A stretch of DNA of 64,000 nucleotides from Candidatus Altiarchaeota archaeon. Lineage in GTDB: Archaea > Altiarchaeota > Altiarchaeia > IMC4 > SCGC-AAA252-I15. This document shows positions 17,622-38,313 of this stretch, in pieces. Both the position numbers and the translations under genes were made by a program. The notes under the pieces were generated by a model, which saw only the letters and a program-made list of their open reading frames with translations, was not told the origin of the DNA and did not search any database. Within the stretch, counting starts at the first letter, position 1. Every line of letters starts with the position of its first letter. The stretch lies in the NCBI GenBank assembly GCA_043813075.1, contig JBDRLL010000010.1, forward strand, positions 96,001-160,000. Reading direction: 5' to 3'.

Positions 17622-19046
17622 TTACGGCAATCTTGTGGTCTTAGCGGCCATATCTGTGCGTGCGGTATTCTCTACGATATCGCATAATCTCTCCATCTTG
17701 CCGGCGTTCCTGAACAATTCTCTCTCGCAGAAGGATGCGTGTTTTCCTGAAGGGAGATTCGCGTGTAGTGTGCATGTGGAGACGAGGCCCAGGTCGATGT
17801 TATCCAGCTCGTGGAACCTGCCTATGAGTATGCTGAATATGCCCGGGAATTTGAGTTTCATAGGGCGTCTTCTTACTACAGAGCGTATCACGTCAATGCT
17901 TGAACTCAATAGCACCCTCCTTAAGATCATGTCCTTGATAATCCCCCGTAGGAATTCCATGTAGGGGGCGTTTGCTATGAGTCTGATGGTGTTGAGTGTT
18001 TTTGACTGGCCCATGTTCCTGTTTATGTCATCCAGTCTCTTATTTATCGCATGTAGGTCCAGTGTTTTTCCCAGGGCCTTCATCTCCCTGCCGTTTGTCA
18101 GTACGTAGCACCTGATCTCGCATTCAGGGACTCTGAGGCCTTTTCTCCCAGATATTTTTCGGATGATCTCAAAGAAGTTGTAGGCGAAGACTGTGGATTC
18201 TATGAAGTCATCGTCTGTTAGGTCAGATGCTTTCTGGATTTCCTCGATTATCTCTGCTTGCGTTAGGGTGTTGTCTTGCGGGCGTCTCCCTATGTTCCAC
18301 ACGCTATTGAAGTCTAGGACGCACACGTCCTTGTAATTGGATGACGAGAATTTTATGAAATCGCCTATCTGATCGTCGTTTAGCCCCTTTATCACGAGGA
18401 CAAATGGCATTATCGGTATCCTTTGTTTTTTCAGGTTTTCGACAGCATGGTTTTTAACGTCCAGCAGGTCTTCACCCCTTATCTGGATGCATTGTTGCCT
18501 GGAGAATGAGTCGAACTGTAGTATGACCATGTCTAAACCTGCTTTTTTCAGAGTCTCGACGTAATGCATGTCCTCAAGTTTCTTCCCGTTTGTGAACAGT
18601 ATGGCGTCAAATCCCCTTTTTTTGATCTCTTTTATTATCTCTGCGAGATCGTCTCTGACAGTGGGTTCGCCGCCTATGAGATAGATCCGTGAGCCCTTGA
18701 ATCCGTCAAGCATCTGGATTATCCCATCATACGTTAGTTCATCCTGACATGCATTCTCATCCGATTCTGCGAAGCAGTACGGGCATTTCTGGTTGCACCT
18801 GTATGTGATGAAGAGTTCCAAGGCTTCAGGGTAGGAGCTATGCCTGGACTCCCTGAAAAGGTTTCTAAGCGCATGATAGTGTTTTGGCTTCTCCCACATG
18901 TGCAGTGCTTTGAAATCACCATGCTTATCACATTTCTTTGCAATAAAAACCCTCCCCGACTCTTCAACGACTATCGCATCTATGATTTCTAAGCATTCCG
19001 GACAGTAACTTTTCGTATCATCCAACTTCTTCATAATGCAACCCAT
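17622..19046 (-). CDS. Radical SAM protein, Tes/GDGT-MAS (MJ0619)-like, copy 1
   Basis: N-terminal CPEC-x20-CDKH; CNQKCPYC; GGEPT; C-terminal CEIRC...CTLH...SFC. Alternative start at 19034. Confidence 0.85.
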   Translation of the reverse strand: MGCIMKKLDDTKSYCPECLEIIDAIVVEESGRVFIAKKCDKHGDFKALHMWEKPKHYHALRNLFRESRHSSYPEALELFITYRCNQKCPYCFAESDENACQDELTYDGIIQMLDGFKGSRIYLIGGEPTVRDDLAEIIKEIKKRGFDAILFTNGKKLEDMHYVETLKKAGLDMVILQFDSFSRQQCIQIRGEDLLDVKNHAVENLKKQRIPIMPFVLVIKGLNDDQIGDFIKFSSSNYKDVCVLDFNSVWNIGRRPQDNTLTQAEIIEEIQKASDLTDDDFIESTVFAYNFFEIIRKISGRKGLRVPECEIRCYVLTNGREMKALGKTLDLHAINKRLDDINRNMGQSKTLNTIRLIANAPYMEFLRGIIKDMILRRVLLSSSIDVIRSVVRRRPMKLKFPGIFSILIGRFHELDNIDLGLVSTCTLHANLPSGKHASFCERELFRNAGKMERLCDIVENTARTDMAAKTTRLP

Positions 19047-19093
19047 ATAGTATTATAGCGAAATATTTAACTATCATCTTTCCTGTTGATTCC

Positions 19094-20201
19094 ATGAAAG
19101 TGCTTGTTTTTGTGGGTGGGGGCGGAGGCCTTGGGACAGCAAGCAGGTCTATTGCTCTCGGCGAAAAATTCATCGGCCAGGGTTTTGACGTGGTCTTCGG
19201 TTCTTTCGGGAGATCACTCGATTTTATCAGGCGCCAGGGATTCGATGCCGGCCGGGTTTCAGCTGAAATGGGTTTTGTGTTGTCTGATGGGCATCTATCC
19301 GAAAGAGACTCCACCCTCCAGTATGTGAGGAACATGTTGTTGTTCAAGATGCGTTCACTGGCTAAATTCATCGCCAGGGAAAACCCTGATCTTATAGTGT
19401 CCGACTCCTATCTGCCTGGTGCGGTGGCCTCAGTGTTGAATGGCAAGCCCACATACCCTTTGATGAACATACTCCACAGGGAAGTATACGCGTCACGTGA
19501 GAACGGTTTCAATGTGGGGTGGCAGACTGGTGTGGGCTGTATGGGACCTTGTGTTTTCAAGGTCTGTGAACGTGTTAATCCCTGACTTTCCCCCTCCAAA
19601 CACGATATGCGGGGAAAATCTTGTGTGCACTCCAAAGTTGGCTGCAAAACTCTTGTATACCGGACCATTGATACGCGCCAGCAATGAGGACAGCAATGAT
19701 TCCCCGGCGTGTGATGTGCTTCTTGTTTTGAACACCGGATTCTCCAGTTCGTTGATGCGTGAAATAATCGAGACGATGGATGATGCGCCTGACCTAACAT
19801 GCCATGTGGTCGGCTCTCAAGCCGGAGATTGGCCTAATTCCGGAAGTTTTCAGAACATTGGCCTAACGGATAACGTCCTCCAGCATATAGTCAATTCTAA
19901 GGTTGTGGTTTCGACTGGCGGGCATACCACCATTTGCGAGTCAGTCTGCAGTGGAAAACCGATTATGTGCTCTCCAATATCGAACCATAATGAGCAGGAA
20001 AACAATATCCGATTTCTTGAGGTGAAGAAACTCGGCATTAGACTGTCTCAGGATGCGTCCCACCAGGTAGTATCTGATGGGATACGATGTCTTTTGGAGG
20101 GTGGGGAGTACAGGCTTAATTGCGGTAAATTCAGGGGTGAATACCGTCAAAACGCGGGCACATACTTTTCACGGTTGTTGAAGTCCATTAATTCATTATA
20201 G
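19094..20201 (+). pseudogene. Frameshifted GT-B glycosyltransferase (GT28/MJ1255-like)
   Basis: ORF 19094-19585 holds the N-half (GGGLGTASR, PDLIVSD); ORF 19497-20201 in the +1 frame holds the C-half (IPDFPPP, YTGP, STGGHTTICE, HNEQENN). Confidence 0.8.
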
Positions 20202-21594
20202 CCTTTACTGCCCCGAACCTGCCGGCATACCTTTTCACGTCCACCCATCCTCTAATCTGCCTTAGATTTCGGAAGATGGTCTTAGGCCTTAGGAAGAATT
20301 CTCTGTAGAACTCTTTCCTGCGTTTTATCAGGTATTCCCTTGTCAGGCCTTCTGGTATGAACACCGGTTGCCATGAGTTTAATTGCGTCAGATCTGTGTT
20401 GTCGAAGGTCCCGTATCTCTTGTATGTCTCGTATAGTCTTGTGTTTGGGAGTGGTGTCATCATTAATACTGATAGTTCTGTCAGTGGGAGCGATTTCGCA
20501 AATCTTATCGTCTCCTCTATTGACTCGTGTGTTTCGGAGGGGTTGTTTATCATGAAGCATGCTTGCGTGTATAGTCCCGCCTGGTCGCTCCATTCGATGG
20601 CTTTTCTCGTATCATCTAGGGTGAATCCTTTTTTTAGCGTATCAAGTATCCTCTGGCATCCGCTTTCTGCCCCATAGAATATGTGCCACATGCCAGCGTC
20701 CTTCATCTTCACTAAAAGGTCTTTTGTCACAAGGTCTGACCTGGTGCAGCACCTCCATGCCAAGTCGATTCCCCTCTCATTAATCAGTTCACATATCTGC
20801 CCTATCCTTTTATTGTCTAACGTAAACGTGTCTTCTGTGAAGAAAATCTCCCTTGCTCCATAGTCTCTAGCCAATGATTCCATCTCATCCACCACCCTCT
20901 CGGCGCTGTTCTGCCGGTATTTGCGTCCAAACACGCTTTGGTCGCAGTATATGCAGTTGTACGGGCATCCCCTGCTGGTGACCATTGTCGTGGAAGGTAG
21001 CCTACGGTAGTTCTTAGATTCTGGTATGTACCTCCTGATGTCTGGAAGCAGGTGTCTTGCTGGAAATGGCAGGGAATCCAGGTCCTCGATAATCCTCCTT
21101 GCGTGTGTCTTCACCACATTCCCGTTTTCCCTGAATAATATGCCATCCACCCGCCTCAAGTCACCGTTCCCCTCAATAGCGTCCACTAGTTCCAGCATCG
21201 TTTCTTCTCCCTCGCCTATCACTCCAAAGTCAAAACATTCGTTGGATATGACTTCCTCAGGATTTGCTGATATGAACGGGCCGCCAATAATGATTTTTAT
21301 GTCGTCATCCGATTCTCTAATGCTTTTCGCAATCTCTAGCGTGGTGTAAAATGTCGCCGCCACGCATGTCAGCCCAACAATGTCCGTATTGTGTTTAACC
21401 ACATGGGATGTGATCTCTCCAGTGTTCAGTCCTTCAAATTCAGCATCGATTATCCTGACATCATTCCCGTCTTCCTCGAGGACTGCGGCGAGATAGCATA
21501 GTCCCAGTGGCGGTTGCTCGCCCCTGCTGCCCAAGTATCCTGTGCCATAAAGCCTCTCCAAGTCTACTGGTGGGTTTATGAACGTTACGTTCAT
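20188..21594 (-). CDS. B12-binding domain radical SAM protein (class B)
   Basis: MNVTFINPP, PPLGLCYLA, IIGGP, GEGE, TSRGCPYNCIYC, GAESG. Start moved to 21594 from the ORF-track 21942, which overlaps the divergent gene. Confidence 0.9.
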   Translation of the reverse strand: MNVTFINPPVDLERLYGTGYLGSRGEQPPLGLCYLAAVLEEDGNDVRIIDAEFEGLNTGEITSHVVKHNTDIVGLTCVAATFYTTLEIAKSIRESDDDIKIIIGGPFISANPEEVISNECFDFGVIGEGEETMLELVDAIEGNGDLRRVDGILFRENGNVVKTHARRIIEDLDSLPFPARHLLPDIRRYIPESKNYRRLPSTTMVTSRGCPYNCIYCDQSVFGRKYRQNSAERVVDEMESLARDYGAREIFFTEDTFTLDNKRIGQICELINERGIDLAWRCCTRSDLVTKDLLVKMKDAGMWHIFYGAESGCQRILDTLKKGFTLDDTRKAIEWSDQAGLYTQACFMINNPSETHESIEETIRFAKSLPLTELSVLMMTPLPNTRLYETYKRYGTFDNTDLTQLNSWQPVFIPEGLTREYLIKRRKEFYREFFLRPKTIFRNLRQIRGWVDVKRYAGRFGAVKAIMN

Positions 21595-21634
21595 GGATAT
21601 ATCTTTCGAAATCGTCTTATAATACTCTTGTTGA

Positions 21635-23455
21635 ATGATGAAATTCCGCCGGTTTATCGAGTTAATGAACCCATTCAGCCTCTCTTCTAGGCTAACCTCA
21701 TCAGACAGCATTCCCGTCTTGTTTATGGCATTACTAGCATTATTGTTGGTAGTATCCCAGATTACTGAAAAACCAGTTGACATGACGTATGCCTTTTTTT
21801 GCTGGTTTAGCGGTTTTCTTGATGACTTCTTCCGGCAGTTTACCGGCTGGTCTGCTGGTAGCATCTGCACCGGGAAAGAGGGGTTGGTTAAGGGCGCATC
21901 ATTCTTCGTGTGGGCTGTCGGATTCCTATTGTGCGTGATCACTGCAAATGGGCTTAGGAAAAACGGCCTCCCAAGAAATTCGTTTGTTAACCTGCTTACT
22001 GTCGTATTAATCGCCGTCTTTATTGCCCGCGTGTTCGGGCTTTATCTGACGACCTCCCACTCGGACGGTTATGGCGATGAATACTTCTGGATTCACGGGG
22101 CATACTTCTACAACCTGTTTTTCGTAAAAAACGATTTTTTCAACGAGGACTGGCACAATTTCATATCCTATGAGGCTCCTCCTGTGAGCAGATATGTTAT
22201 CGGTTTCGCACTGGATCGCATAAACCACAGGATAGTTGAGACTGGTGGCGGCCTGACCCTCTTCCAAAAGGCTTGTTTTGATGTTATGTGCGGTAATCTA
22301 CGTGATAGCGCAATGGGTTATCCGGGGGATGCTAGGTTGATGGGTTACTGTGATTCTGTTCTACTGCAGTTGAAGGAGCCTGTTGTCCAGCGTCTTGATA
22401 AGGTGGACTATGATGTGGCTAGGCGGGTGATGTTACTGTTTGGCGTCTCAACTTCTTTGTTGTTGACTCTATTGTGTTCCCACTATCTTAACCGTGTTTT
22501 TTCGGGTTTGCTTGCGGCAACGGTGTTTCTCAGCAACGGGATTACCATACCTACGTTCCAGCTTGTTCTCCTTGACGCGATGTGCTGCTTCTTCATCCTC
22601 CTCTCCTTGATTTCGTTAATAGAGTTATCCGGCAAGCTAAGGAGATATTGTACTACCAATTCCTCCAGTAGTCTGGGTGGTAAGCGGTTGTGGGAAGTGG
22701 CTGTTTTATCCATAGTAACTGGTTTCCTATTGTCTTTGGCTGTTGGGACGAAATTTATCTCCGCTTACCTGGTCGTTACCGTCGTTGTGGTTTTTATCGT
22801 AAAAATGTTTTTTGAACATGGGATGGTTGGGCCGGGCCATGGAGAGCATAATCGTTTGCTGAGGATGGCCTCTCTTATGGGCGTTTTTGTCTTGGTCTTC
22901 ACGTCCGCTTTCGCATTCTTTGTGCTGATGAATCCCTTCATTTACCCCAGTCCTATAGGTAATACCCTGAAGTTGTTCAATAATCGGCTTGATTCAATGG
23001 CACTCCAGGAGAGGGTGGTGGGCGAGGTTAGCATGCCCCACATGATATTGTTTGGTGAATTGGAGACAAAGCAGATAATAAAGGATGTGAGGATACGGTC
23101 GTTATCACATAGGCTGCGGCTGCTCTATTCGAAGGGGCTGTTGCTTAACCACAGGTTTCAGGTTCCATTCTACGAGTTGATTTATGTGTTCCTGATTCTT
23201 GCGGGATTATCCCACATAATCAGAGAATCGTGTGGTGAGCTATCTGAGGGCTTTTTCGGGAATCACTCGGTAGTGACCGCATTCATCATCTTAACATTCC
23301 TTGTGAACGGGACGTTTATGAACTCTGACTGGGACCGGTATTACACTTATTTTGCCGTATGCACCTGCATGATGCTCGCATTTGGGGTTGAGGTTGTGTT
23401 GCGTTCAGCGGACGTTTATCTTCATAAAATCGTAATCAGCATGTGGGAAGAATAA
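21635..23455 (+). CDS. ArnT/PMT-like (GT-C) polytopic membrane glycosyltransferase
   Basis: More than 10 TM segments; GDEYFW acidic motif after TM; PP motif; LAVGTK; MNPF; WDRYY. Confidence 0.75.
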   Translation: MMKFRRFIELMNPFSLSSRLTSSDSIPVLFMALLALLLVVSQITEKPVDMTYAFFCWFSGFLDDFFRQFTGWSAGSICTGKEGLVKGASFFVWAVGFLLCVITANGLRKNGLPRNSFVNLLTVVLIAVFIARVFGLYLTTSHSDGYGDEYFWIHGAYFYNLFFVKNDFFNEDWHNFISYEAPPVSRYVIGFALDRINHRIVETGGGLTLFQKACFDVMCGNLRDSAMGYPGDARLMGYCDSVLLQLKEPVVQRLDKVDYDVARRVMLLFGVSTSLLLTLLCSHYLNRVFSGLLAATVFLSNGITIPTFQLVLLDAMCCFFILLSLISLIELSGKLRRYCTTNSSSSLGGKRLWEVAVLSIVTGFLLSLAVGTKFISAYLVVTVVVVFIVKMFFEHGMVGPGHGEHNRLLRMASLMGVFVLVFTSAFAFFVLMNPFIYPSPIGNTLKLFNNRLDSMALQERVVGEVSMPHMILFGELETKQIIKDVRIRSLSHRLRLLYSKGLLLNHRFQVPFYELIYVFLILAGLSHIIRESCGELSEGFFGNHSVVTAFIILTFLVNGTFMNSDWDRYYTYFAVCTCMMLAFGVEVVLRSADVYLHKIVISMWEE

Positions 23456-24877
23456 ATGAAAATCACGCTTCTTTATCCGAAAAAATCCGATGAATACGTG
23501 GGATACCTGCCCTCCCCTCCTTATGGTCTGCTATGCCTTGCGGGAGTCTTACTCCGGGAAGGCCATTCTCCAAATGTTGTTGACTTGAACTTTGTGGGTG
23601 AGTCGGAGGCTATTGGTCGTATTAACGGCTCTGATGCGGTAGGCATCTACGCATCAATCGACGTATACTGGGAGGCGTTAAGGCTGGCTAAGGTGTCGAA
23701 AGGCTGCCGCAAGTTCGTTATCCTTGGCGGGCCGCAGGTCACTGCCTTCCCTGGGATGGCTCTTGATTGCCCTGACGTTGATGTTGTTGTTCTGGGCGAG
23801 GGTGAGGCGACGATAATTGATTTAATCGGCTGTTTGGTTGAGGGCGGGGATTTGTCGGTGGTTGATGGCATCGGTTTCAAACGGGATGGTGCTAAGGTTT
23901 TCACCCGGAAAAGGGGTTTTATCAGTGATATTGATGCGTTGCCTCTCCCCCCGTTCCACCTGCTTCCCATACAGGATTACTTGGCTTATTGGCGTAAAAA
24001 CTATGGGTACACTGCCATCAACATTGTCACCAGCAGGGGATGCCCGTACAACTGCATATACTGTTCCAAACAGACATTCGGGGGTTTATACCGTGCCAGA
24101 TCGCCAATCAGTGTCGTGGACGAGATGGAGCATATCAATGGAGCTTATCATCCTAGCGTTATCGTTATCCAGGACGACCTCTTTCTCCTCGACAGGAGGC
24201 GGGTCATCGGCATTTCCAAGGAGTTGATTGCCAGGGGACTGGCGGTGAGTTGGGTTTGCACTGCAAGAGTTGATATGGTTGATGGGGAAGTTTTGGGGTG
24301 GATGAGGAAGGCTGGTTGTGTTATGATAAACTATGGTGTTGAGTCTGGCTCTGAAAGGATGCTGGAGTATCTCGGCAAGGGCACACATAGGTCTCAGATA
24401 GTTTCCGCGTTCAAGCTGACAAAGGATGTTGGAATAAAAGCTGGCGCGTTCATAATGATCGGGATACCCGGTGAGACTGTTGAGGATATCGGGGAGACGG
24501 AGTCTCTGATACGGGAGATACGCCCTGACTGGATGAACGTCACGTTCTTCACGCCCATACCCGGTAGTCGTGCTTGGTCTGAGCTGGTTGGCGGCGAGGA
24601 CTTTGGTGGGGAATTTGTGGTGGATTTTAACTTCAGGACGTTCAGTCAGAGATACAATTTTTCGAATATGAGCGAATCAGAATTGAATAATGCTCGGGCA
24701 AGGATTAGGAGGGATCATTTCCTCAGGTCCGTATTATACCGGGTGATTAATGCCATCCGAAGGCCCAGTATCATGTTCTCCTATCTCAGGAAGCTTATGG
24801 TCTTCCTGTCTTCGGGTGGTGGGTTCCGATTGAACACGTTTGTAAAGAGTAATCTTACCTGGTTTTACAAGGATTGA
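23456..24877 (+). CDS. B12-binding domain radical SAM protein (class B)
   Basis: PPYGLLCLA, LGGP, GEGE, TSRGCPYNCIYC, GVESGS, GIPGET; abuts the upstream GT-C gene. Confidence 0.9.
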   Translation: MKITLLYPKKSDEYVGYLPSPPYGLLCLAGVLLREGHSPNVVDLNFVGESEAIGRINGSDAVGIYASIDVYWEALRLAKVSKGCRKFVILGGPQVTAFPGMALDCPDVDVVVLGEGEATIIDLIGCLVEGGDLSVVDGIGFKRDGAKVFTRKRGFISDIDALPLPPFHLLPIQDYLAYWRKNYGYTAINIVTSRGCPYNCIYCSKQTFGGLYRARSPISVVDEMEHINGAYHPSVIVIQDDLFLLDRRRVIGISKELIARGLAVSWVCTARVDMVDGEVLGWMRKAGCVMINYGVESGSERMLEYLGKGTHRSQIVSAFKLTKDVGIKAGAFIMIGIPGETVEDIGETESLIREIRPDWMNVTFFTPIPGSRAWSELVGGEDFGGEFVVDFNFRTFSQRYNFSNMSESELNNARARIRRDHFLRSVLYRVINAIRRPSIMFSYLRKLMVFLSSGGGFRLNTFVKSNLTWFYKD

Positions 24878-24894
24878 GTGCGTTGATTCTCGAT

Positions 24895-25629
24895 CTACCC
24901 TACCTTTAATCTTTCGGTCGGAGGGTATCTGGTCAGAAAATCTTCTATGAAAAGCTTATACTCCTCCGTCAACTCTCCGGAGGATATCCGTATTAACGTA
25001 TCCCCATGCCACCATCCGTAGTAATGCATTATGTAGGGGTCTTTGCCTTTAATCATCGAGGATCCTTCTTCTGTCTCACCTATTACGTCGTCATTCGTGT
25101 AGAGTGATTCGTAATATTCCTTCTCTCTAGTGCCTAATATGACTCCAATGCGGTCATCCTTGCCTTTTTTATAGATTATGTGGATCCACTCATTCCCGTC
25201 TGACGTATTCACGATGCTGACAAATTCAAATGAGTATCCTAACGTCAAGTTGTCTTTGACTATGTATCTGCTGATTTTTTCATTGAATGTCTGATTCGGT
25301 TCGAATGCGCCTAAGTAGGTTATATTATCCGCGTCATTGTAGTATCTATTCCACCTTACTGCCCCTGGTCTGATGGTTGTTGTGACCAGCTTCTCGATTT
25401 TTATGAACTCACTGCTAGGCAACACAATCTTTATCGTTGTTGTGGTTGTTGCTTCTGGCTCTACTTGTGTGGGGCTTAGATAGTAGTATGCTATCAGTAT
25501 GGCGGCTGCGAGTAATACTATGATCACTGTTCTACTATCGGTTTTTCTGTCTTTTGGCCTAACCCCCTCCACTATCACTGGGCTTCCCTGACCTTCATCA
25601 CCCCAGAATTCTTCCTGGTCGCTCATCAT
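24895..25629 (-). CDS. Single-TM hypothetical protein, paralog of 37645-38313
   Basis: One TM followed by a poly-Thr linker; shares RYI-x2-D-x-L and C-terminal YPPT-x-RL with 37645-38313. Confidence 0.75.
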   Translation of the reverse strand: MMSDQEEFWGDEGQGSPVIVEGVRPKDRKTDSRTVIIVLLAAAILIAYYYLSPTQVEPEATTTTTIKIVLPSSEFIKIEKLVTTTIRPGAVRWNRYYNDADNITYLGAFEPNQTFNEKISRYIVKDNLTLGYSFEFVSIVNTSDGNEWIHIIYKKGKDDRIGVILGTREKEYYESLYTNDDVIGETEEGSSMIKGKDPYIMHYYGWWHGDTLIRISSGELTEEYKLFIEDFLTRYPPTERLKVG

Positions 25630-25681
25630 AACCTGTTTACTATCTTTCCCTCCACTGCTTATATACCCTGCTCCTCGTTTG

Positions 25682-27889: not shown

Positions 27890-28125
27890 GTTATGTCCTT
27901 AATTTAGGAGACTTCCGGGAAATATTAGCTTACTGCGGGTGGTATGCTCGATGGAATGTCAGATAATCCATCTGGAACCTGGACTTCCAGACATTCATCA
28001 GCGTCCGCTTTGATGCCGGCCTGATGGGATCAGAAGTCCTAAGCCATGGTAAAGAATAATCTAACCCTGTTATAAGCATTTCACCCAATGTTTTAATATC
28101 ATAAGGCCATAATATTACCCTCAAA

Positions 28126-29057: not shown

Positions 29058-29264
29058 ATGGGCAACGGAAACAGGGAGCTGATTACCGGCGGAGTCATAG
29101 GCGGGCTAGTTTTCGGCGGTAAGGTGATAACAGGGATGTTGTCTCCAATATGCCTCGCCGGTTCTGCGATGTTTCTGACTGTTGGCGGTGTCAAGAAACT
29201 GTATCCTGACAAGAGCCTTTCGCTTAGAAAGCGTGTTAAACTAAGGTTTGCTGAGAATGGGTAA
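29058..29264 (+). CDS. Small Gly-rich membrane protein
   Basis: GGVIGG...SPIC...GGVKK; paralogous to the next ORF. Confidence 0.6.
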   Translation: MGNGNRELITGGVIGGLVFGGKVITGMLSPICLAGSAMFLTVGGVKKLYPDKSLSLRKRVKLRFAENG

Positions 29265-29445
29265 GGGCGATACTGAACTCGCGGTTGGAGGGGCTCTGGG
29301 CGGTCTGGCTGTTGGTGAAGTCCTGGTTCTGGGTGTCGCATGCCCTCTTTGTGTTGTCGGCGCAGCAGTGCTCCTGGCTGCCGGCGGCCTGAAGAAGGTC
29401 CGGACAAAGGTCGGGAAATCATGCGGCAGTCGCAAGATTAAGTGA
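29257..29445 (+). CDS. Small Gly-rich membrane protein with CPLC motif
   Basis: GGALGG...ACPLC...GGLKK; overlaps the previous gene by 8 bp. Confidence 0.65.
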   Translation: MGKGDTELAVGGALGGLAVGEVLVLGVACPLCVVGAAVLLAAGGLKKVRTKVGKSCGSRKIK

Positions 29446-29448
29446 GCA

Positions 29449-30993: not shown

Positions 30994-30997
30994 CTAG

Positions 30998-32530
30998 ATG
31001 ATGTTGCACGCCACAAATTCCAGATCATTCTCCGTCTTGCTCTGCATTATACTCTCATTTAACCTCATCAACTCCATGTTCCACGTCTTAAACGCCGAAT
31101 TCGATCACGACGAATTCCAGCACATGCACATAGCCTGGAACATACTGGCTGGTAAAGTCGTGTACCGGGATTTCTTCGACCACCATGGCCCCCTATTCTC
31201 AATGCTTAACGGATTCTTCCTCAGGCTGCTGGGCATTGAAGCATCAGTATCCACTCTCTTTTACCTCAGGGCAACCAGCCTCCTGTACATGTCACTGACA
31301 CTGTATCTTACGTTTAGGATAGCCTCCGAAGCCTTAGAGTCAAGGCAGGCAGGCCTTTTGTCGGCGGCAATACTCTCCGGGCTGCTCGTATTCCAACTCA
31401 AGTCAACCGAGTTTCGGCCTGACGTCCTCCAGTCTGTCCTATGGCTTTCAGGACTGTATGTCGTTCTGATGGATTCTGGTGGGGGCTGGAGGAGTCGCCT
31501 CTTCCTGGCGGGGATTCTGTTTGGTGGCGTGGTGATGACCACAATGAAGGGTGTTGTCGGCGTCGCATCAGTCATACTCTACTACCTCGTAGTTTGTCTA
31601 AGGGGTGTCCAAGAATGTGGGCAGTGCACCCGGAATATCCTGTCACTGATTTCAGGCATGCTCGTAGTGTTCCTACTGTTATGCATATACTTCCTCTCTT
31701 ACGGCGCTCTAAGCGAATTCATCTACTATAACACATGGTTTAACCTTCATGCGTTCATGAACCATAATAACGATAATTTCTCGAGCATCATGTTATTCCT
31801 CATGGAAACCCAGCCCCTCTTCGTGGCCGCCGGCCTTGGAGGCCTTTTGATGTTGGGTTGGGGACTTATTATCCCAGGCTCCCGCGGTCCTGGCTATTCG
31901 AGGAGGCTGTTGCTGTTCACGTCCTCCCTGGTTGCTGTTTTTTCCGCGCCACTTGGATTGTATCCGCAGCATTACCTCCTCATACTGCCCCTGTTGTCTG
32001 TCACTTCCGCATACGCCTTCCTCTGGCTTAAGCAGGCTCTTGAAGACGTTAATTCCACTGGCTTCTTATACGTCTTCTCCCTGTTCTTCTTTTTTGCCAG
32101 CATGATATTCGCTTCAGTCAGCTATACCCCCTATGCTCCTTCAGACATCCTAATCAGTCAGGTTGAGCTCACCGAGTTCATCCTCCGGAACACTTCACGC
32201 GATGAGCCGGTGCCTTTGCTCGTGTGGAACAATTGCGGCGGGTTCGTATTCAACGAAGACATCCAGTACTACTGGTCTTCCAGCATGGATATGGAGGATG
32301 TCTTTGAGATGGATGAGGGTTATGACGTTTTTGGCGAGCACCTGACCCGTCTCATGGGGGAGAAAAAAGTTAGGTATGTGCTGTCAGAGGATGTTGACAC
32401 TTCACGCTACGACCAATGGTATGTGGGACACATTATATACCGTGGTACGCCGCCTGAGACAAGGAGGTATGTCGCGGAAAACTTCCATCAAGGCGAAAAC
32501 CCGTGCCTATGGATACGTAATAACGCGTGA
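30998..32530 (+). CDS. ArnT-like membrane glycosyltransferase
   Basis: DHDEFQHMH, YRDFFDHHGPL, EFRPD, YPQHYL; many TM segments. Confidence 0.8.
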   Translation: MMLHATNSRSFSVLLCIILSFNLINSMFHVLNAEFDHDEFQHMHIAWNILAGKVVYRDFFDHHGPLFSMLNGFFLRLLGIEASVSTLFYLRATSLLYMSLTLYLTFRIASEALESRQAGLLSAAILSGLLVFQLKSTEFRPDVLQSVLWLSGLYVVLMDSGGGWRSRLFLAGILFGGVVMTTMKGVVGVASVILYYLVVCLRGVQECGQCTRNILSLISGMLVVFLLLCIYFLSYGALSEFIYYNTWFNLHAFMNHNNDNFSSIMLFLMETQPLFVAAGLGGLLMLGWGLIIPGSRGPGYSRRLLLFTSSLVAVFSAPLGLYPQHYLLILPLLSVTSAYAFLWLKQALEDVNSTGFLYVFSLFFFFASMIFASVSYTPYAPSDILISQVELTEFILRNTSRDEPVPLLVWNNCGGFVFNEDIQYYWSSSMDMEDVFEMDEGYDVFGEHLTRLMGEKKVRYVLSEDVDTSRYDQWYVGHIIYRGTPPETRRYVAENFHQGENPCLWIRNNA

Positions 32531-32541
32531 TCATGCCCTGT

Positions 32542-34032
32542 TCATTTCAGCACACCGTATACAGTGATCTTACCGTCTGAGACTATCCTCTCCAGGTGGC
32601 TGAAGTCAGTGATATTGGCGTGCCAACCCTGCTGGTGCACCACATAGTCCACCCCGTACTGGTCTATTATCCTGTTGAAGTCTTTCTCTCTCGAGGGTAT
32701 CTGCACTGCCCTAGCGTTGAACACGTAGTTCACGTAATACGGGAAGTTGGCCATCACAACGTCTTCTTCCCCAACCCTGCCTTCGAGCATCACGAGGGCA
32801 GGGTATATGCCATCAAAGGTGTTGGACATGAAGTAGACTGCTGAAGTGATGTTGATCAGGACCATGAGGCAGATGGAGGTCACGTAAGTTATCCTCCCAA
32901 TCCTGTCCCTGTATAACTTGAATTTATCCACGAAGAAGAGCTCAAAAACAATCGCGGACGCTATGGAGAAGAATGGGACCAGCGGATAAAGGTATCTGAC
33001 CCTGCCGAATGTTGTTGAAGTCATCAGGAAACTGAGGATGAAGTATGCGAGTATGCTAGCCCAAAATTCCCTCCTACCTGCAACGCGTTTATACAAGTCC
33101 CTCACCATAAGCAACCCCAGGCCGAAGACAAGCGGGTTGGGGGTGAAGAACACGCACCCTCCCACCAGGTTTATGCAGTTCATAAGAACCCAGACGCAGG
33201 TCTCCGTGTTTATCCTGCCCAGTATCATACTCCCTATCGATTCGTTTATCTCCAGTCTTGAGAATAATTCATCCTCCCTCATCGGTATTAGGAATCCTAT
33301 GGCGTGAAAGTGGTTGTAGAAGGGGTTTCCAGTGCTGGCGTAATTTCGGTACAGCCATGGCGAGGAGACAACCAGTGCGACGAGGACGACAGTCAATGCC
33401 CTGCCGACCCCATTCCTAGCCCCTGCCTTGAGGGAGTAATAGATGAATACTACTGGTATGAGCACGAAAGCGGATATCCTGGTTAGGTATGCTAGTCCTA
33501 GGGCAACCCCTGTTATGACAAGCCCCCTCACGCCATCAAACTTAATCATCAGGTAAAGCGTCAGCAGAACAAAGAAGCTGAAGACCGTGTCTGAAAGAAC
33601 CTGGGGCAGGTAAGTCAGCGCGTAGACGTTCCCTGAATAGAATACCGCGGAGACGATTGAAATCCTCCCCGACCCTGTTAACTCCAGTGCGATAATATAC
33701 ACGAGCCCCGCTATCAGGCTTTCGAAGAGGATGTTGACAAGCTGCGCGCTATAAATGCCGGGGCCGAATATCCTGAATGATAATGCCGTCAAATACAGGT
33801 ATACCGGCTGCCGGAAGTAGTATGTCATGGGGAATGAGTCAGACCTAAGTATCAGAGGCCATATAACGTCTACCACCAGGCCCCTGCCCTCGTAGATGCT
33901 TTTCGCGATTGCTAGGTGGTGGTATGAGTCGTAATACAGATTCCCAATTATCGCGTATTTCCAGACCAGTATCAGCCTGAAAACCAGGTTCAATGCCACA
34001 ATAAGCAGGATTATCTTGTGGTTGCGCTTCAT
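32542..34032 (-). CDS. ArnT/GT39-like membrane glycosyltransferase
   Basis: YDSYHH..AKSI..GRG, RQPVY, LAYLTR, PWLYRN..TGNP, RYLYP. Confidence 0.83.
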   Translation of the reverse strand: MKRNHKIILLIVALNLVFRLILVWKYAIIGNLYYDSYHHLAIAKSIYEGRGLVVDVIWPLILRSDSFPMTYYFRQPVYLYLTALSFRIFGPGIYSAQLVNILFESLIAGLVYIIALELTGSGRISIVSAVFYSGNVYALTYLPQVLSDTVFSFFVLLTLYLMIKFDGVRGLVITGVALGLAYLTRISAFVLIPVVFIYYSLKAGARNGVGRALTVVLVALVVSSPWLYRNYASTGNPFYNHFHAIGFLIPMREDELFSRLEINESIGSMILGRINTETCVWVLMNCINLVGGCVFFTPNPLVFGLGLLMVRDLYKRVAGRREFWASILAYFILSFLMTSTTFGRVRYLYPLVPFFSIASAIVFELFFVDKFKLYRDRIGRITYVTSICLMVLINITSAVYFMSNTFDGIYPALVMLEGRVGEEDVVMANFPYYVNYVFNARAVQIPSREKDFNRIIDQYGVDYVVHQQGWHANITDFSHLERIVSDGKITVYGVLK

Positions 34033-34069
34033 CTCTTCTCTTTATTATGCTGATTCACGGAAAAATACC

Positions 34070-35437
34070 TCACTCTCCAGAGGTTCTGGTATTGTCGCAG
34101 GACCTTCTCATATTCCTTAGGCAGAATGACTCTGGTCGGCCGGCCGGGTTGTCCGCGTATAGGGTGCAGGTGTCCGTGAAATCCAGGTCAATGTTGTGCC
34201 TGTCATGGTATCTGCCGAGCATGATGCTGAGTATGCCTCCCGTATTCGAGGATGATGGCGGCTTGCCCAGCATGGATTCAACCGCGAGCTTAAGGCTCTT
34301 TAAGGCGAATGGTCTAGCATGCCTGTTGGACAAGACGCCCGCCAAAATCTTAAAGAACGGGAATTTCCTCATAAGCCAGAACCTACCTGCCAATGATTCG
34401 CCCTCAATCATCCCATTCAACTCCAGTAGTCTACTGTTGACCTCCTTCAAGTCAATGATCCTGTTTATCGGTACTGGAACGTTGTCTACCACGATACTAT
34501 AGCATCTTACCTCGCATTTCGGGCTTCTCCTGCCAGAGCCGCCGAACACCTTCCGCAGCACTTCGAAGAAACCATAGCTGAAGCGGGTGCTATCAATGAA
34601 GTCTTCCTCGCTTATGCCGTAATGCCTGTATAATATGTCTATCATATGGGAGTGGGAGAAGACGTCTGGATCGTATGGGCCGTTAAGGTCCCACATGCTC
34701 TGGAAGTTGACGATTCTCACAGTCCTGCTGTTCTCCACAGCATAGTCTGTGATCTTCTTCACCTGGTCTTCATTCACACCCCTCCTGATTATCGCGTTAA
34801 TCTCAGTGGTCACGTTCAATTCAACCAGGTTTTCCAGCGTCCTCATCTTATGATCGAGGACGTCACTGCCATAAAGCATCTTGCATTGTTCCCTGTCAAA
34901 ACTGTAGAATGATAGTATCACCAGGTCAACGCCTGCATCCTTCAAGCCAGCCACATAATCAATGTCCCTCGTCCTAACACCGTTGGTGAACAACACCACG
35001 TTCTTACCCTTGTCTTTCACGGCCTTGATTATCTCAGGCAGGTCTTCCCTCAGTGTTGGCTCTCCCCCGCAGAGATACACTGAGGATCCTCTGAAGCCAT
35101 CAATCCTCGAGATGATATCCTCCACGCTCGGCTCATCATCTAATGTCCCTCCTGTTTGCGCGAAGCAGTGGGGGCACCCCATATTGCAGTCGAGCGTCAC
35201 GTCTATCACTAGGCCGTCAGGGTCTCCGGACTCCCCCCGCCCCAGTAGGCTGCTCATATTCCAATACAGTCCAGGGCTCTCGTAGAAGTGAAGGGCCTCA
35301 AACTCGCCGTGTTCCCCGCATTTCTTGGAGATCCGCATCCTACCGTCCTTCTCGAATACTATTGCGTCAATCTCCTTCCTGCAGGTCGGGCACAGGCTCC
35401 TCGTCTTCCTGGTTTCCATATCTTCATCCACCATCAT
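34070..35437 (-). CDS. Radical SAM protein, Tes/GDGT-MAS-like, copy 2
   Basis: TRSLCPTC-x20-CGEH; CNMGCPHC; GGEPT; CEVRC...CTLY...SFC. Confidence 0.85.
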   Translation of the reverse strand: MMVDEDMETRKTRSLCPTCRKEIDAIVFEKDGRMRISKKCGEHGEFEALHFYESPGLYWNMSSLLGRGESGDPDGLVIDVTLDCNMGCPHCFAQTGGTLDDEPSVEDIISRIDGFRGSSVYLCGGEPTLREDLPEIIKAVKDKGKNVVLFTNGVRTRDIDYVAGLKDAGVDLVILSFYSFDREQCKMLYGSDVLDHKMRTLENLVELNVTTEINAIIRRGVNEDQVKKITDYAVENSRTVRIVNFQSMWDLNGPYDPDVFSHSHMIDILYRHYGISEEDFIDSTRFSYGFFEVLRKVFGGSGRRSPKCEVRCYSIVVDNVPVPINRIIDLKEVNSRLLELNGMIEGESLAGRFWLMRKFPFFKILAGVLSNRHARPFALKSLKLAVESMLGKPPSSSNTGGILSIMLGRYHDRHNIDLDFTDTCTLYADNPAGRPESFCLRNMRRSCDNTRTSGE

Positions 35438-36749
35438 TCATTGAATATATGTGGTCCATGTCCAAGTCCTCCAGTCTCTTCCTTCCAGTCGAGAATATGT
35501 TGTTCTCGCAGAACGTCAATGTACCCCTCTCAGAGTCGGAGTATAGGTTGCACGTGTCTATGAGATTATAGTCTGCGTTGTATCTGGTCTGTGATGGGTT
35601 CACCACGATACCTATCATGCCTGGCACATTGTCTTTGAACTTTCCACCAAATAGTATCGCATTAAGGAAGCTGGCGGACAATCTTACCATGATTGGGATG
35701 AGTCTGGAGTCAAACAATATCCTCCGTTTCATAATGTTCAGGAATAGGCTGGGGAAGGAGTTGCTCTCATTCAAGGCAGTCGTCATCCCCTCCAAATCCA
35801 GCATCCTATTCAATGGGGTAAAAACACCTTCTCTCACATGGGCATAGCATACCGCCTCGCATAATGCAATACCTTTCCTGTCCACCCTCACCCTGCTTAG
35901 GAAGCTGGTGAGTGTGACATCAAACATTGTGTTGGAGATGAAATCATCTTTAGTGATGCCCAACTCGCTTATCCTGCTGAATATGTCATCGTTCCTAACA
36001 AATTTCCTGTCGAAGCCGGCAGCTCCTTCCGGGGATATGGGGCAGAACAATACCGTCCTCATCCCGTCTGACATTTCACCTGCGAGCTCTAATATGGGCT
36101 TCACCTGGCTTTCATTCAAGTCCTTAACGATAACCACGAAGAAGGACAGCCATATGCTCGTGCCTTCAAGCGATTTCATAGCCTTCCTCTTGACGTCCAA
36201 CAACCTCATGCCCCTCATCCTCTCGTTAATCCCGTCGTCCATGGAGTCCAACTGCAGGAGCACTCCATCCAGCCCCGCCTCGTCAAGCTTCCTTGAGAGT
36301 GTTTCATCAAGCAGCAGTCCGTTCGACAAGAGTATGACCCCGAAGCCCCTTTCCTTCAGGCTCCTGACGATATCCGGCAAGTCCTCCCTCATCGTGGGCT
36401 CGCCACCGTACAACAGGATGTTCCCCCCACCCCACATCCCAGCCTTCCCGATTATATCCTCAATCACCGGCTCTTTTTTCGCGGTGTTGAAGCAGAATGG
36501 GCAGTTCATATTGCACTTGTCTGTAACGTCTATCGTCATGTCCTTTATCGGAGGGTTCAGCCAAGCATCAGAGATTCTCAGCATGTTCTCGTACATATAC
36601 GGGTCGTCCCATGCATGAGGGCATTCAAAAATACCGTGGTCAGCGCACTCCCTTGACACGATGACAACGCCATCCTTGATGCTGATTTCACCGTCAAGCT
36701 TCTTCAGGCAGACCGGGCATAGACTTCTCGTTCTGACAGGCTCCATCAT
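35424..36749 (-). CDS. Radical SAM protein, Tes/GDGT-MAS-like, copy 3
   Basis: TRSLCPVC-x20-CADH; CNMNCPFC; GGEPT; CEAVC...CNLY...TFC. Confidence 0.85.
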   Translation of the reverse strand: MMEPVRTRSLCPVCLKKLDGEISIKDGVVIVSRECADHGIFECPHAWDDPYMYENMLRISDAWLNPPIKDMTIDVTDKCNMNCPFCFNTAKKEPVIEDIIGKAGMWGGGNILLYGGEPTMREDLPDIVRSLKERGFGVILLSNGLLLDETLSRKLDEAGLDGVLLQLDSMDDGINERMRGMRLLDVKRKAMKSLEGTSIWLSFFVVIVKDLNESQVKPILELAGEMSDGMRTVLFCPISPEGAAGFDRKFVRNDDIFSRISELGITKDDFISNTMFDVTLTSFLSRVRVDRKGIALCEAVCYAHVREGVFTPLNRMLDLEGMTTALNESNSFPSLFLNIMKRRILFDSRLIPIMVRLSASFLNAILFGGKFKDNVPGMIGIVVNPSQTRYNADYNLIDTCNLYSDSERGTLTFCENNIFSTGRKRLEDLDMDHIYSMNDGG

Positions 36750-36811
36750 ATCGCCTTTATTTACCTTTTATTTGATAAAATATTACTGTCCTGACGTTCA
36801 GGTGATTTTTA

Positions 36812-37639
36812 GTGGATATTTTAGCGTATCTCACAGGATTTTATCGGATAAAAGATTGGGTCCACCTCCTAGGTCTGGGTTTCATAGGCCTATCCTACTC
36901 CAGTCCCTTCCCCCCTGATGATGGGGCCATACTGGCGTGTGGCATAGTGTCATCACTATACCTTGCATTCGGTTACTCATCAAACACTCTATTCGAGGAG
37001 CACATGGGGAAATCATTAGGCTGCCGTCAGCTACTCCTCTCAATGCTGCCAGCCGCAGTCGGCTTGGCATTCTCCTATCATCTCTCACCCCCACTGGCTT
37101 TCCTATACTCCATTGGGGTTCTGTTTGGCATACTCTACTCTGCCCCCCCAGTAATGGCGAAAGGCATGCCTGTAATCGAATTGTTCTTCAACTCACTACT
37201 ATTCACCCTGATATTCCTGTTCGGCGTTGTGTTGGGTGGCGGTTCTGCGAGCAGTGACGTCCTGTTTTTCTCAGCATTCATCTTCATCATGGTCATCCCA
37301 TTCCAGCTCGTGCAGGAACTCACGGACATGGACCATGACGCGTCAAAGGGCATCAAGACGACTGCAGTGCATATGACGCCCAAGGCAGTCAGGCTTATGA
37401 TGGTTGCGGCCATACTCGTTATCCTACTGTTCTCAGTGGTCATGCCGCCGTGGGTTGGGTTGGACTGGAGATTCACGGTGGCCACCATCCTGTTCGGATT
37501 ATCGTTTCTGCCTTCAACTAGAATGCCATCTGCCAGTGGGAATGCGGACTATGGGCGATTAAGGATTGGCCTTAGATACGCTGGCATCGCATATGGTCTG
37601 TTGCTGGTATTACTGCTCTCTATTAAGCAGGGTTTTTGA
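36812..37639 (+). CDS. UbiA-family prenyltransferase
   Basis: YRIKDW N-terminus, YSAPP..K, second Asp-rich motif QELTDMDHD...GIKT; about 8 TM. First Asp-rich motif is degenerate (SNTLFE). Confidence 0.8.
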   Translation: MDILAYLTGFYRIKDWVHLLGLGFIGLSYSSPFPPDDGAILACGIVSSLYLAFGYSSNTLFEEHMGKSLGCRQLLLSMLPAAVGLAFSYHLSPPLAFLYSIGVLFGILYSAPPVMAKGMPVIELFFNSLLFTLIFLFGVVLGGGSASSDVLFFSAFIFIMVIPFQLVQELTDMDHDASKGIKTTAVHMTPKAVRLMMVAAILVILLFSVVMPPWVGLDWRFTVATILFGLSFLPSTRMPSASGNADYGRLRIGLRYAGIAYGLLLVLLLSIKQGF

Positions 37640-37644
37640 CTGAG

Positions 37645-38313
37645 TCATACGCGCAGCCTCTTTGTCGGAGGGTATTTGTTGATGAAGAAATCCTTTATCT
37701 CAGACAGCCTGCCTTCTTCCGGTAGCGTGGTGACCTGCATCAGGCGGTCTTCACTAACCCACGTGTATCCTGGCATTCCAAGCTTGCTTACTGTCTTAGC
37801 GATCATGTTGTCGAATTCTGGTTTAATCTCCGTGTTGACGGCGTTTATATGGTCCTCGTAATACGTGCCTTTCGTGCTTACTATGAAGTAGTACTTCTTA
37901 CCGTCAACATCATACTCTGCCACCACAAACTCGAATCCGGTGTTTGTGTCCTCATCACCCTCCACGTAGAATATCCCCACGAACATAAGTCCTGCGGGAA
38001 GCTTATCTTCTATTATATATCTGGTTAGAAAGTCCTTCTCAACATCACTGGTCTCGCCAGTGTCCTCCAGGCTACTGCCCCTATAAATCATCTTCCTCAC
38101 TGGCATAACATCTGAATCGACTGAATTATTGACTCCAGACTCTGTCGTGGGGGCTGATACGAACGTATATGCTATTATGAGTACTGCAACGACTCCCACA
38201 ATGACCAGCGGCATCTTGCTGGATGAACTACCATCGCTTATCTCCCTGCCTTCAACGATTGTCGGTATGTCAATCCCCACGGTAACATCACCCTCTACTG
38301 GTATTCTATTCAA
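37645..38313 (-). CDS. Single-TM hypothetical protein, paralog of 24895-25629
   Basis: LTRYIIEDKL...FFINKYPPTKRLRV versus ISRYIVKDNL...FLTRYPPTERLKV. Start uncertain (TTG). Confidence 0.72.
   Translation of the reverse strand: MNRIPVEGDVTVGIDIPTIVEGREISDGSSSSKMPLVIVGVVAVLIIAYTFVSAPTTESGVNNSVDSDVMPVRKMIYRGSSLEDTGETSDVEKDFLTRYIIEDKLPAGLMFVGIFYVEGDEDTNTGFEFVVAEYDVDGKKYYFIVSTKGTYYEDHINAVNTEIKPEFDNMIAKTVSKLGMPGYTWVSEDRLMQVTTLPEEGRLSEIKDFFINKYPPTKRLRV

Follow-up and report, generated by a model that had tools for sequence, protein, structure and literature searches.

A 64,000-nucleotide stretch of altiarchaeal DNA (the window; contig C10:96001-160000 of host genome G000, 1.80 Mb in 41 contigs, 89% complete) contains a 21-kb accessory segment, here called the island, at 17.0-38.3 kb. 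The island encodes three radical SAM proteins that resemble tetraether synthase (Tes-like proteins), two class B (B12-binding) radical SAM enzymes (B12a and B12b), five GT-C glycosyltransferases, a GT-B glycosyltransferase and a UbiA-like membrane protein. We propose, with a probability of about 0.5, that the island and a sister cluster on contig C3 of the same genome encode a pathway for a membrane-anchored, radical-tailored, polyprenyl-derived envelope glycoconjugate (a glycolipid or lipoglycan) made by oxygen-independent radical chemistry. It is very likely that the genes form one functionally linked system, and probable that the substrate of this system is a polyprenyl-derived lipid or lipid-linked glycan; the idea that the Tes-like enzymes make C-C bonds in a hydrocarbon tail is tentative.

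Open reading frames (ORFs) were called mechanically, and families were assigned from Pfam and NCBIfam scans against curated cut-offs. The initial annotation of this segment had named the main gene classes and their positions; all were recovered there, and every Pfam score exceeds its curated cut-off. The features of the island are as follows.

17035-17604, plus strand: 189-aa ORF at the left end of the variable segment, unmatched in Pfam and NCBIfam, membership uncertain
17622-19046, minus strand: Tes-like radical SAM 1, 474 aa (Pfam Zn_ribbon_HMPTM 55.3 bits, Radical_SAM 78.2 bits)
19094-20201, plus strand: GT-B glycosyltransferase (MJ1255/VC2487-like), split into ORFs 19094-19585 (N-half) and 19497-20201 (C-half)
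20188-21942, minus strand: class B (B12-binding) radical SAM a (B12a), 584-aa ORF (B12-binding 80.1 bits, Radical_SAM 75 bits)
21635-23455, plus strand: GT-C glycosyltransferase 1, PMT-like (Pfam PMT 32.8 bits, cut-off 22.7; 11 transmembrane segments; D-E motif)
23456-24877, plus strand: class B radical SAM b (B12b), 473 aa (Radical_SAM 75.1 bits, B12-binding 37.9 bits)
24895-25629, minus strand: small membrane-anchored protein 1, 244 aa (one transmembrane segment, Thr-rich linker, outside domain)
25682-27889, minus strand: GT-C glycosyltransferase 2, 735 aa (PMT_2 42.8 bits, PMT 38.5 bits)
28126-29052, plus strand: GMP synthase subunit B, the ATP-pyrophosphatase part of guaA (TIGR00884 432 bits, cut-off 339)
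29449-30993, minus strand: GT-C glycosyltransferase 3, 514 aa (Pfam PMT 36.3 bits)
30998-32530, plus strand: GT-C glycosyltransferase 4, 510 aa (PMT_2 30.1 bits, cut-off 26.1; 7 transmembrane segments)
32542-34032, minus strand: GT-C glycosyltransferase 5, 496 aa (PMT_2 50.7 bits, PMT 27.2 bits)
34070-35437, minus strand: Tes-like radical SAM 2, 455 aa (Zn_ribbon_HMPTM 54.2 bits, Radical_SAM 79.1 bits)
35424-36749, minus strand: Tes-like radical SAM 3, 441 aa (Zn_ribbon_HMPTM 44.8 bits, Radical_SAM 72 bits)
36812-37639, plus strand: UbiA-like polytopic membrane transferase, 275 aa (Pfam UbiA 65.9 bits)
37645-38313, minus strand: small membrane-anchored protein 2, 222 aa (paralogue of 24895-25629)

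The initial annotation had likened the three Tes-like proteins to tetraether synthase (Tes/GDGT-MAS, the MJ0619 family); they do not belong to that family proper. On the NCBIfam Tes model (NF045702, cut-off 450 bits), Tes-like 1, 2 and 3 score 197, 162 and 145 bits and their paralogues in the C3 cluster 128, 104 and 158 bits. On the model for the radical SAM (seleno)protein TrsS (NF045646, cut-off 490 bits), the island proteins score 192, 160 and 155 bits. For reference proteins from named genomes, the corresponding values are 459-742 bits for archaeal Tes on the Tes model and 532-699 bits for most bacterial proteins on the TrsS model. Identity between the Tes-like proteins and Tes/GDGT-MAS is 24%. 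In trees built with FastTree (150 rows) and in quick and careful IQ-TREE runs (70 rows), a branch with support 100/99.9 sets Tes and TrsS apart, and the six G000 paralogues, their altiarchaeal kin and the Omnitrophota proteins form a separate 32-row clade (99/99).

The architecture of Tes is retained in three of its four domains. The top PDB match of the A1 profile is GDGT-MAS 7TOL (1.6e-80). An AlphaFold2 model of Tes-like 3 (predicted local distance difference test score, pLDDT, 90.6) has 7TOM/7TOL as its best Foldseek matches over the full length (TM-score 0.80-0.82, E 5e-32); the next fold, MoaA, matches in the radical SAM core alone (TM-score 0.38). The rubredoxin-like site C15, C18, C39 and H49 is invariant in 21 sequences, its putative ligand role resting on the alignment to 7TOL and on PMC13459092, and Zn_ribbon_HMPTM scores above its cut-off in all three proteins. 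The cysteines of the CX3CX2C radical SAM motif (C84/C88/C91) are conserved and align with their Tes counterparts, and C309/C425/C440 are invariant and align with the ligands of the Tes [4Fe-4S]C cluster, with Y314 also conserved. The domain that is missing is the segment of the [4Fe-4S]N cluster. An excerpt of PMC13459092 describes this cluster of Tes as bound by three Cys and one His, along with the roles of the conserved Tes Cys and Tyr residues. In the alignment to 7TOL, the corresponding CX3CX2CX2H motif occupies an extra segment of Tes that separates the ribbon from the radical SAM motif. Of 77 Tes/TrsS proteins, 73 have this motif, as does the true Tes of genome G032. It is missing from all 14 members of the Tes-like subfamily checked, and 135 of the 144 new representatives in the best 150 of the profile lack it as well.

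Each genome with this subfamily carries two to six diverged Tes-like paralogues. In G000 there are six, and they are old: the other five share only 27-36% identity with the first. Orthologues were identified for Tes-like 1 in G033 (59% identity), for Tes-like 2 in G036 (44%) and G050 (42%), and for Tes-like 3 in G050 (G050_d, 56%). In a set of 1.84 billion cluster representatives, the clade has about 60 full-length members above 300 bits. When genome and metagenome contigs were scanned for the sequence pattern, nearly all matches were true Tes or TrsS, the island kind being represented by L012 and L096 only; a third locus, L097, was rejected as it is a Tes gene adjoining CarS. A dedicated search for longer fused Tes-like forms returned none, which is weak evidence. 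Separately, we observed a natural 950-aa fusion of a B12 radical SAM enzyme with a Tes-like protein lacking the N cluster (P0250), an 814-aa CobW::Tes-like fusion (P0077) and, elsewhere in the Tes superfamily, TrsS-type proteins fused to DUF5714 (L027:6303-8369, L072:9968-12145 and P0105).

The UbiA-like gene is transcribed divergently from that of Tes-like 3. Its product matches PF01040 with 65.9 bits (cut-off 34.2), the match being confined to profile positions 72-227. Members of the UbiA superfamily have two Asp-rich metal-binding motifs, with the consensus NDxxDxxxD and DxxxD. In an alignment of 20 relatives of the island protein, motif 1 is shrunk to N58-x-x-x-[D/E], so that most of the first Asp-rich motif is lost; motif 2 is partly kept (E169 and D176), and YSxPxxxxK is conserved. 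The AlphaFold2 model (pLDDT 90.9) has a UbiA fold, to which AfUbiA and DGGGPS are nearest in Foldseek (TM-score 0.72-0.73, E 3e-7 to 5e-6); the membrane phosphoribosyltransferase (PRTase) 8J8K is matched with a TM-score of 0.64 (E 1e-3). A profile of the protein separates its relatives from ordinary UbiA (at least 177 bits versus at most 55 bits) and gives no PDB sequence match. The protein represents a rare divergent subfamily, with 12 clusters in a collection of 5.8 billion proteins. It is not the host's DGGGP synthase: it scores 21 bits on NF009521 (cut-off 296), a better candidate at C10:1132-1965 scores 223 bits, and G000 encodes DGGGPS-like, GGGPS and CarS genes outside the island.

The linkage of these genes extends beyond the island. 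All six Zn-ribbon radical SAM genes of G000 lie in two clusters of three, each with B12 radical SAM and GT-C genes. The second cluster (C3, about 95.7-107.4 kb) holds two B12 radical SAM genes, the three other Tes-like genes and genes for a 554-aa B12-type radical SAM protein, a methyltransferase and a GT-C. In G050, which belongs to another genus of the same family, a cluster is present at the same site between dnaJ and FBPase, with the order GrpE-DnaK-DnaJ, small transmembrane protein, UbiA-like protein, 555-aa radical SAM protein, four Tes-like proteins, 797-aa GT-C-like protein, methyltransferase, GT-C, small transmembrane protein and FBPase-PFK. The four Tes-like genes of G050 are orthologues of paralogues from both G000 clusters (pair supports 99/84 to 100/100), and therefore the two G000 clusters belong together. 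G036 carries orthologues of Tes-like 2, B12b and the GT-B immediately next to one another and has a GT-C gene adjoining its UbiA-like gene; B12b is 50% identical to the B12 radical SAM protein encoded beside the Tes-like gene there, and the N-half of the GT-B is 42% identical to the GT4 protein encoded beside the Tes-like and B12 radical SAM genes. The island fills exactly the gap between FBPase and dnaJ, and three relatives lack a cluster at this site: FBPase abuts dnaJ in G039, and the two are separated by a single gene in G051 (from the same genus as G050) and by four unrelated genes in G038.

Two further proteins at these loci were examined. A 385-aa radical SAM protein without an NCBIfam match, encoded between dnaJ and dnaK (39554-40711, minus strand), was rejected as an island member, its gene being conserved in the dnaK operon of island-free relatives (65-66% in G038 and G039). 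A conserved polytopic protein of 797 aa in G050 (L090:13947-16340) and 949 aa in G036 (L094:262-3111), without a Pfam match, adjoins the Tes-like genes; its ESM Atlas features suggest GT-C-like clusters (score 0.98), and neither G000 cluster showed an orthologue.

The same genes also occur together in bacteria. Among 401 Omnitrophota genomes, the UbiA-like gene is present in eight. Tes-like genes reaching at least 450 bits are found in exactly five genomes, all of them among these eight, with the two genes at most 10 kb apart (Fisher test on 5/0/3/393, p = 6.6e-10, uncorrected for kinship). The loci contain one to four B12 radical SAM genes each, PMT_2 GT-C genes in two cases, and also genes for SPASM radical SAM proteins, CobW, methyltransferases and peptidase U32. 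In an Omnitrophota metagenome-assembled genome (L012), a methyltransferase, B12 radical SAM proteins, several other radical SAM proteins, the UbiA-like protein and two Tes-like proteins are encoded in a row, and on a metagenome contig a radical SAM gene, the UbiA-like gene and a Tes-like gene are consecutive. Matching contig counts and longest lengths suggest that three UbiA-like and three Tes-like database entries share contigs as well. None of the five cluster-bearing Omnitrophota genomes has a PcrB/GGGPS match above the cut-off, and archaeol therefore cannot be the conserved substrate. This is a real cross-domain cluster, shared by Altiarchaeota and some Omnitrophota. Scattered homologues lacking a conserved neighbourhood, which the initial annotation had named as grounds for refutation, are contradicted by the conserved clusters in both altiarchaeal and Omnitrophota genomes. 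Distant relatives of the Zn-ribbon radical SAM proteins (206-254 bits, often in two or three tandem copies) were seen in 18 further Omnitrophota genomes and, as at G365:C30, G371:C6, G359:C5, G266:C8 and G318:C14, represent other undescribed branches of the family.

Both B12 proteins consist of a B12-binding domain and a radical SAM domain (PF02310, 80.1 and 37.9 bits; cut-off 32.1). The best NCBIfam matches of B12a are BchE (236 bits) and HpnJ (217 bits), neither above the cut-off, and the BchE, HpnJ, ApyD and ladderane B12 models are all matched far under their cut-offs. All five GT-Cs exceed a Pfam cut-off and have 7-11 predicted transmembrane segments each. An acidic D-E pair follows the first transmembrane segment, which we take to be the catalytic DE motif of GT-Cs; its Asp is invariant in the 11 aligned cluster GT-Cs, and its Glu is present in at least 90% of them. 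GT-C 2 and the C3-cluster GT-C share 61% identity over 721 aa, and GT-C 3 is 32% identical over 481 aa to a GT-C of the G050 cluster. PDB sequence searches with two GT-Cs found no match, and GT-C 5 scores 24 bits on the ArnT model NF009784, far under its cut-off.

B12 radical SAM and GT-C genes are also paired elsewhere in G000. Of the 15 B12 radical SAM loci in the genome, 11 lie within 10 kb of a GT-C gene, against 4.5 expected (p = 0.0008); outside the two focal clusters, 7 of 11 do so (p = 0.024). At a distance of 3 kb the association is not significant. A GT-C and B12 radical SAM pair is found at L194 (C15:2267-7011), and one of the modules that combine GT2, B12 radical SAM and GT-C genes adjoins AglB/STT3 and a cis-prenyltransferase. 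In the tree of B12 enzymes, B12b is sister (support 97) to the B12 enzyme of the GT2/GT-C module at C10:14285-15700.

Several smaller points concern the make-up of the island. The GT-B gene of the initial annotation is present, as two overlapping ORFs in different frames and not as one gene; this reflects a frameshift, a pseudogene or an assembly error. Three sets of DNA reads aligned to 19000-20300 as a check on the break gave no coverage there. Its first ORF matches Glyco_trans_4_4 weakly, its second ORF matches Glyco_trans_1_3 and Glyco_tran_28_C, and the score on TIGR00661 is 45.7 bits, under the cut-off. The ORF of GT-C 1 (21635-23455) shares about 300 nt with the gene next to it, so that the real start probably lies further in, after 21942. 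The two small proteins (24895-25629 and 37645-38313), missed by the initial annotation, also belong to the cluster. Both have one transmembrane anchor and an outside domain, and two relatives are encoded in the G050 cluster; the first has no Pfam or NCBIfam match. For the second, ESM Atlas structures resemble anti-sigma-factor ectodomains (TM-score about 0.5), a sub-threshold lead only. The 17035-17604 ORF has no relative in the compared clusters. GMP synthase subunit B is a housekeeping passenger outside the system: its gene is absent from the syntenic G050 cluster, and its GC content is 0.557 versus an island mean of 0.484. By comparison, GC is 0.520 in the rest of the window and 0.515 in the genome. 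Across window positions 18000-28000 it is 0.44-0.48 versus about 0.52 in the flanks, with minima in a small transmembrane protein gene (0.434) and in GT-C 2 (0.442). No direct repeats were found flanking the island.

Next to the island, at window positions 9296-16984, lies a compact sugar-phosphate block comprising an FBPase_3-like fragment, a class II aldolase, an ATP-PFK and a class I FBPase; the relatives G037 and G039 have two tandem PFK genes at this block. Six genes of the sulfatase/alkaline-phosphatase superfamily (window 3569-9260, 11141-13814 and 58261-59547) flank the glycolysis/gluconeogenesis genes, and another gene of this superfamily adjoins the GT-C/B12 module on C28.

A number of observations weigh against the proposed glycoconjugate pathway. 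The Tes-like subfamily scores 100-205 bits on the Tes and TrsS models, whereas Tes and TrsS score 287-425 bits on each other's; given this distance and the loss of one of the four Tes metal sites, the substrate of the Tes-like proteins could be quite different. The loss of most of motif 1 means that the UbiA-like protein might not be a prenyltransferase at all. In three of the eight Omnitrophota genomes with a UbiA-like gene, no Tes-like gene is seen nearby, and the bacterial versions of the cluster lie among polysaccharide genes (Wzy_C, GT1, GT2, pyruvyl transferase and FkbM). ORF starts were called mechanically, and the GT-B is broken into two ORFs. A search for RNA data sets covering 32542-38313 found none. 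The 1.8-Mb genome has 43 PMT_2 matches, 37 of them above the cut-off, so the five GT-Cs are weaker evidence than they look, and it has the 15 B12 radical SAM loci. Modules of GT2, B12 radical SAM and GT-C genes recur without Tes-like or UbiA-like genes at L191 (C10:8238-20000), L192 (C28:3953-7744) and L193 (C36:76663-92030), and in the tree the island B12 enzymes are interleaved with those of other loci, in sister pairs with supports of 97 and 99. The B12/GT-C part of the island follows a genome-wide theme that resembles lipid-linked glycosylation and may serve it generally; what is specific to the island is the Tes-like/UbiA-like pair. To this extent the lipid-pathway reading of the initial annotation has to be tempered, as large B12 and GT-C families that pair genome-wide lean as much to lipid-linked glycosylation as to lipid-tail chemistry.

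These observations lead to the main rival explanation, tailoring of a lipid-linked sugar, which we consider unlikely on balance. Here, the UbiA-like protein would supply a sugar donor linked to polyprenyl phosphate, in the manner of the mycobacterial decaprenyl-phosphate phosphoribosyltransferase. The hydrocarbon tail would remain untouched, and at the cytoplasmic face the Tes-like and B12 enzymes would alter the sugar head (C-methylation, epimerisation, deoxygenation or carbocycle formation) before the GT-Cs transfer it outside. Consistent with this are the adjacency of UbiA-like and GT-C genes in G036, G258 and G332, the GT2, B12 and GT-C modules at C10:8-20 kb, C28 and C36 together with the GT-C and B12 pair at C15, the excess of B12 loci near GT-C genes at 10 kb, the sister relationship of B12b to the B12 enzyme of such a module, the polysaccharide genes in the bacterial clusters and the significant structural match to PRTase 8J8K. 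However, the only characterised relative of the Tes-like proteins acts on hydrocarbon tails, and they retain its fold together with the C-terminal domain; the UbiA-like model resembles prenyltransferases more than it does the PRTase; and the B12/GT-C association loses significance at 3 kb. Alternatively, the Tes-like enzymes might act on the host's own archaeol in place of Tes, yielding GDGT-like, macrocyclic or extended tetraethers that are then glycosylated. No Tes at or above the cut-off was found in G000 (89% complete), and in a scan of the phylum four genomes (G000, G033, G036 and G050) have the short type only, 20 have a single match, about 470-580 aa long except for one of some 1,000 aa, and none has both types; all four of the single matches checked proved to be Tes (530-635 bits). 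The part of PMC13003381 available also attributes tetraethers and extended tetraethers to Altiarchaeota. Against this, with four genomes the mutual exclusion is not significant (a rough estimate gives about 0.2 by chance) and the sampling too thin, the presumed Tes matches were checked in only 4 of 20 genomes, the island has a UbiA-like enzyme of its own, and the same cluster occurs in the five Omnitrophota genomes without a GGGPS/PcrB match above the cut-off. Since the hosts include bacteria, this replacement of Tes is less likely, and we regard it as improbable.

A non-lipid product has a slightly lower probability still. The radical SAM enzymes could mature a peptide or protein, such as the two small anchored proteins, or a prenylated cofactor or quinone, with the GT-Cs glycosylating proteins. 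The two small transmembrane-anchored proteins, one with a Thr-rich linker, are indeed conserved in the G000 and G050 clusters, the PMT-type GT-Cs are named in Pfam after protein O-mannosylation, the bacterial clusters contain SPASM-type radical SAM proteins and peptidase U32, and G050 has a UbiE-like methyltransferase match. But the small proteins are missing from the bacterial clusters compared, and the fold of the Tes-like proteins matches the lipid enzyme alone. The island is tightly packed, with neither a visible precursor-peptide gene nor space for one, and a ribosomally synthesised and post-translationally modified peptide was rejected on that ground. A quinone pathway made up of UbiA, UbiX, U32 and UbiE-like proteins was likewise rejected: the flavoproteins are AfpA-, dihydromethanopterin-reductase- or CoaC-like, not UbiX, and no other quinone-pathway enzyme was seen in the clusters. 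It is highly improbable that the genes share no function and adjoin one another by chance, G000 being so rich in GT-C and radical SAM paralogues. Such a case would fit the count of 43 GT-C matches and 15 B12 radical SAM loci within 1.8 Mb and the housekeeping guaA subunit in mid-island, but the combination is found again at a second locus, in rearranged order in relatives and in another domain of life, the whole block is either there or missing at one site, and a B12::Tes-like fusion protein exists.

Our preferred reading, the radical-tailored polyprenyl glycoconjugate, can be set against systems already described. To our knowledge, Tes/GDGT-MAS (7TOL, 7TOM) is the sole characterised member of its superfamily. 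It shares with the island proteins the rubredoxin-like ribbon, the CX3CX2C core, the three C-terminal Cys and the conserved Tyr, whereas the island proteins lack [4Fe-4S]N, occur as several paralogues rather than as one gene and are also found in bacteria without GGGPS. TrsS is similar in superfamily and overall length, and the island proteins score about equally on the TrsS and Tes models; it differs in that it carries the N-cluster motif and groups with Tes, and some TrsS proteins are fused to DUF5714. The enzymes that tailor glycerol dialkyl glycerol tetraether (GDGT) lipids, namely the AhbD-like SPASM protein Gms and the B12 enzymes GrsA/B, Gmm, the GDGT methylases and Ted, likewise combine Tes-type and B12 radical SAM proteins in clusters, and AhbD/NirJ-like SPASM radical SAM proteins are present in the bacterial versions of our cluster. 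The island differs in its private UbiA-like enzyme, its many GT-Cs, its occurrence in Bacteria and its BchE/HpnJ matches far under the cut-offs. Polyprenyl-phosphate sugar systems feed GT-Cs in other organisms, as in the mycobacterial UbiA-type phosphoribosyltransferase with Emb/Aft and in the GT2 and GT-C pairs of the ArnC/ArnT and GtrB/GtrC types. The island resembles them in having a UbiA-fold enzyme beside several GT-Cs, in the 8J8K match and in the GT2 and GT-C modules elsewhere in G000, and differs in the incomplete Asp-rich motif 1 of its UbiA-like protein, whose structure is nearer to that of prenyltransferases; we know of no radical SAM enzymes in such systems.

The literature on tetraether synthase, Altiarchaeota, Omnitrophota, radical SAM and UbiA proteins yielded no described pathway with such a combination, in agreement with the initial annotation. 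The portion of PMC11868695 available has no mention of Tes-like paralogues or of the cluster, and in that of PMC13188914 TrsS appears just as a table row. According to excerpts of PMC11214058, the gms, grs and gmm genes are clustered in some Thermococcales, and the tailoring of lipids by B12 radical SAM enzymes (Grs, Gmm, GDGT methylases and Ted) is described there and in parts of bioRxiv 2025.10.20.683597. The notion that Altiarchaeota make diether lipids only is outdated: an extract of PMC13003381 attributes iGDGT-0 and extended tetraethers to Ca. Altiarchaeum and a single true tes gene to the same organism. Tes homologues are counted by BLAST thresholds in the consulted part of PMC8941075.

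The pathway that we propose runs as follows. Gene content, folds and motifs, conservation in two domains of life and presence or absence at one site were observed directly, and from these we infer all chemical steps. The divergent UbiA-like membrane enzyme would join a polyprenyl group to a small acceptor, giving a dedicated lipid independent of the archaeol pathway. The Tes-like enzymes, with their radical SAM cluster and a C-terminal auxiliary cluster held by three Cys, would abstract hydrogen from unactivated sp3 carbons of the chain, and C-C bonds would form by coupling or cyclisation, as GDGT-MAS does on phytanyl ends. The B12 radical SAM enzymes would then methylate or otherwise modify the chain or a lipid-linked sugar. 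Finally, the GT-B on the inside and the five GT-Cs on the outside could add or transfer sugars from polyprenyl-phosphate donors.

A wider hypothesis, which we consider unlikely, is that Altiarchaeota and Omnitrophota share by lateral transfer a toolkit for a new lipid class, a glycerol-independent polyprenyl lipid built by the UbiA-like enzyme, with tails cross-linked and methylated by two to six Tes-like enzymes and the B12 enzymes and with glycosylation on the outer face. An outer membrane has reportedly been found in some Altiarchaeota. If the hypothesis were true, the lipid could be membrane-spanning or serve as the anchor of an outer-membrane lipoglycan, functionally similar to lipopolysaccharide, and the Tes-like clade without the N cluster would be a second, undescribed family of enzymes that couple lipids through C(sp3)-C(sp3) bonds. 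Tetraether lipids serve as palaeoclimate proxies, and surveys of Tes homologues based on BLAST can miscount paralogues of this kind as tetraether producers. The compact island of about 21 kb, present or absent at a defined site, makes the proposal directly testable. The Tes-like clade is always accompanied by its private UbiA-like enzyme and by B12 radical SAM enzymes and is found on both sides of the archaea-bacteria divide, which points to undescribed lipid or lipoglycan chemistry in abundant subsurface microbes.

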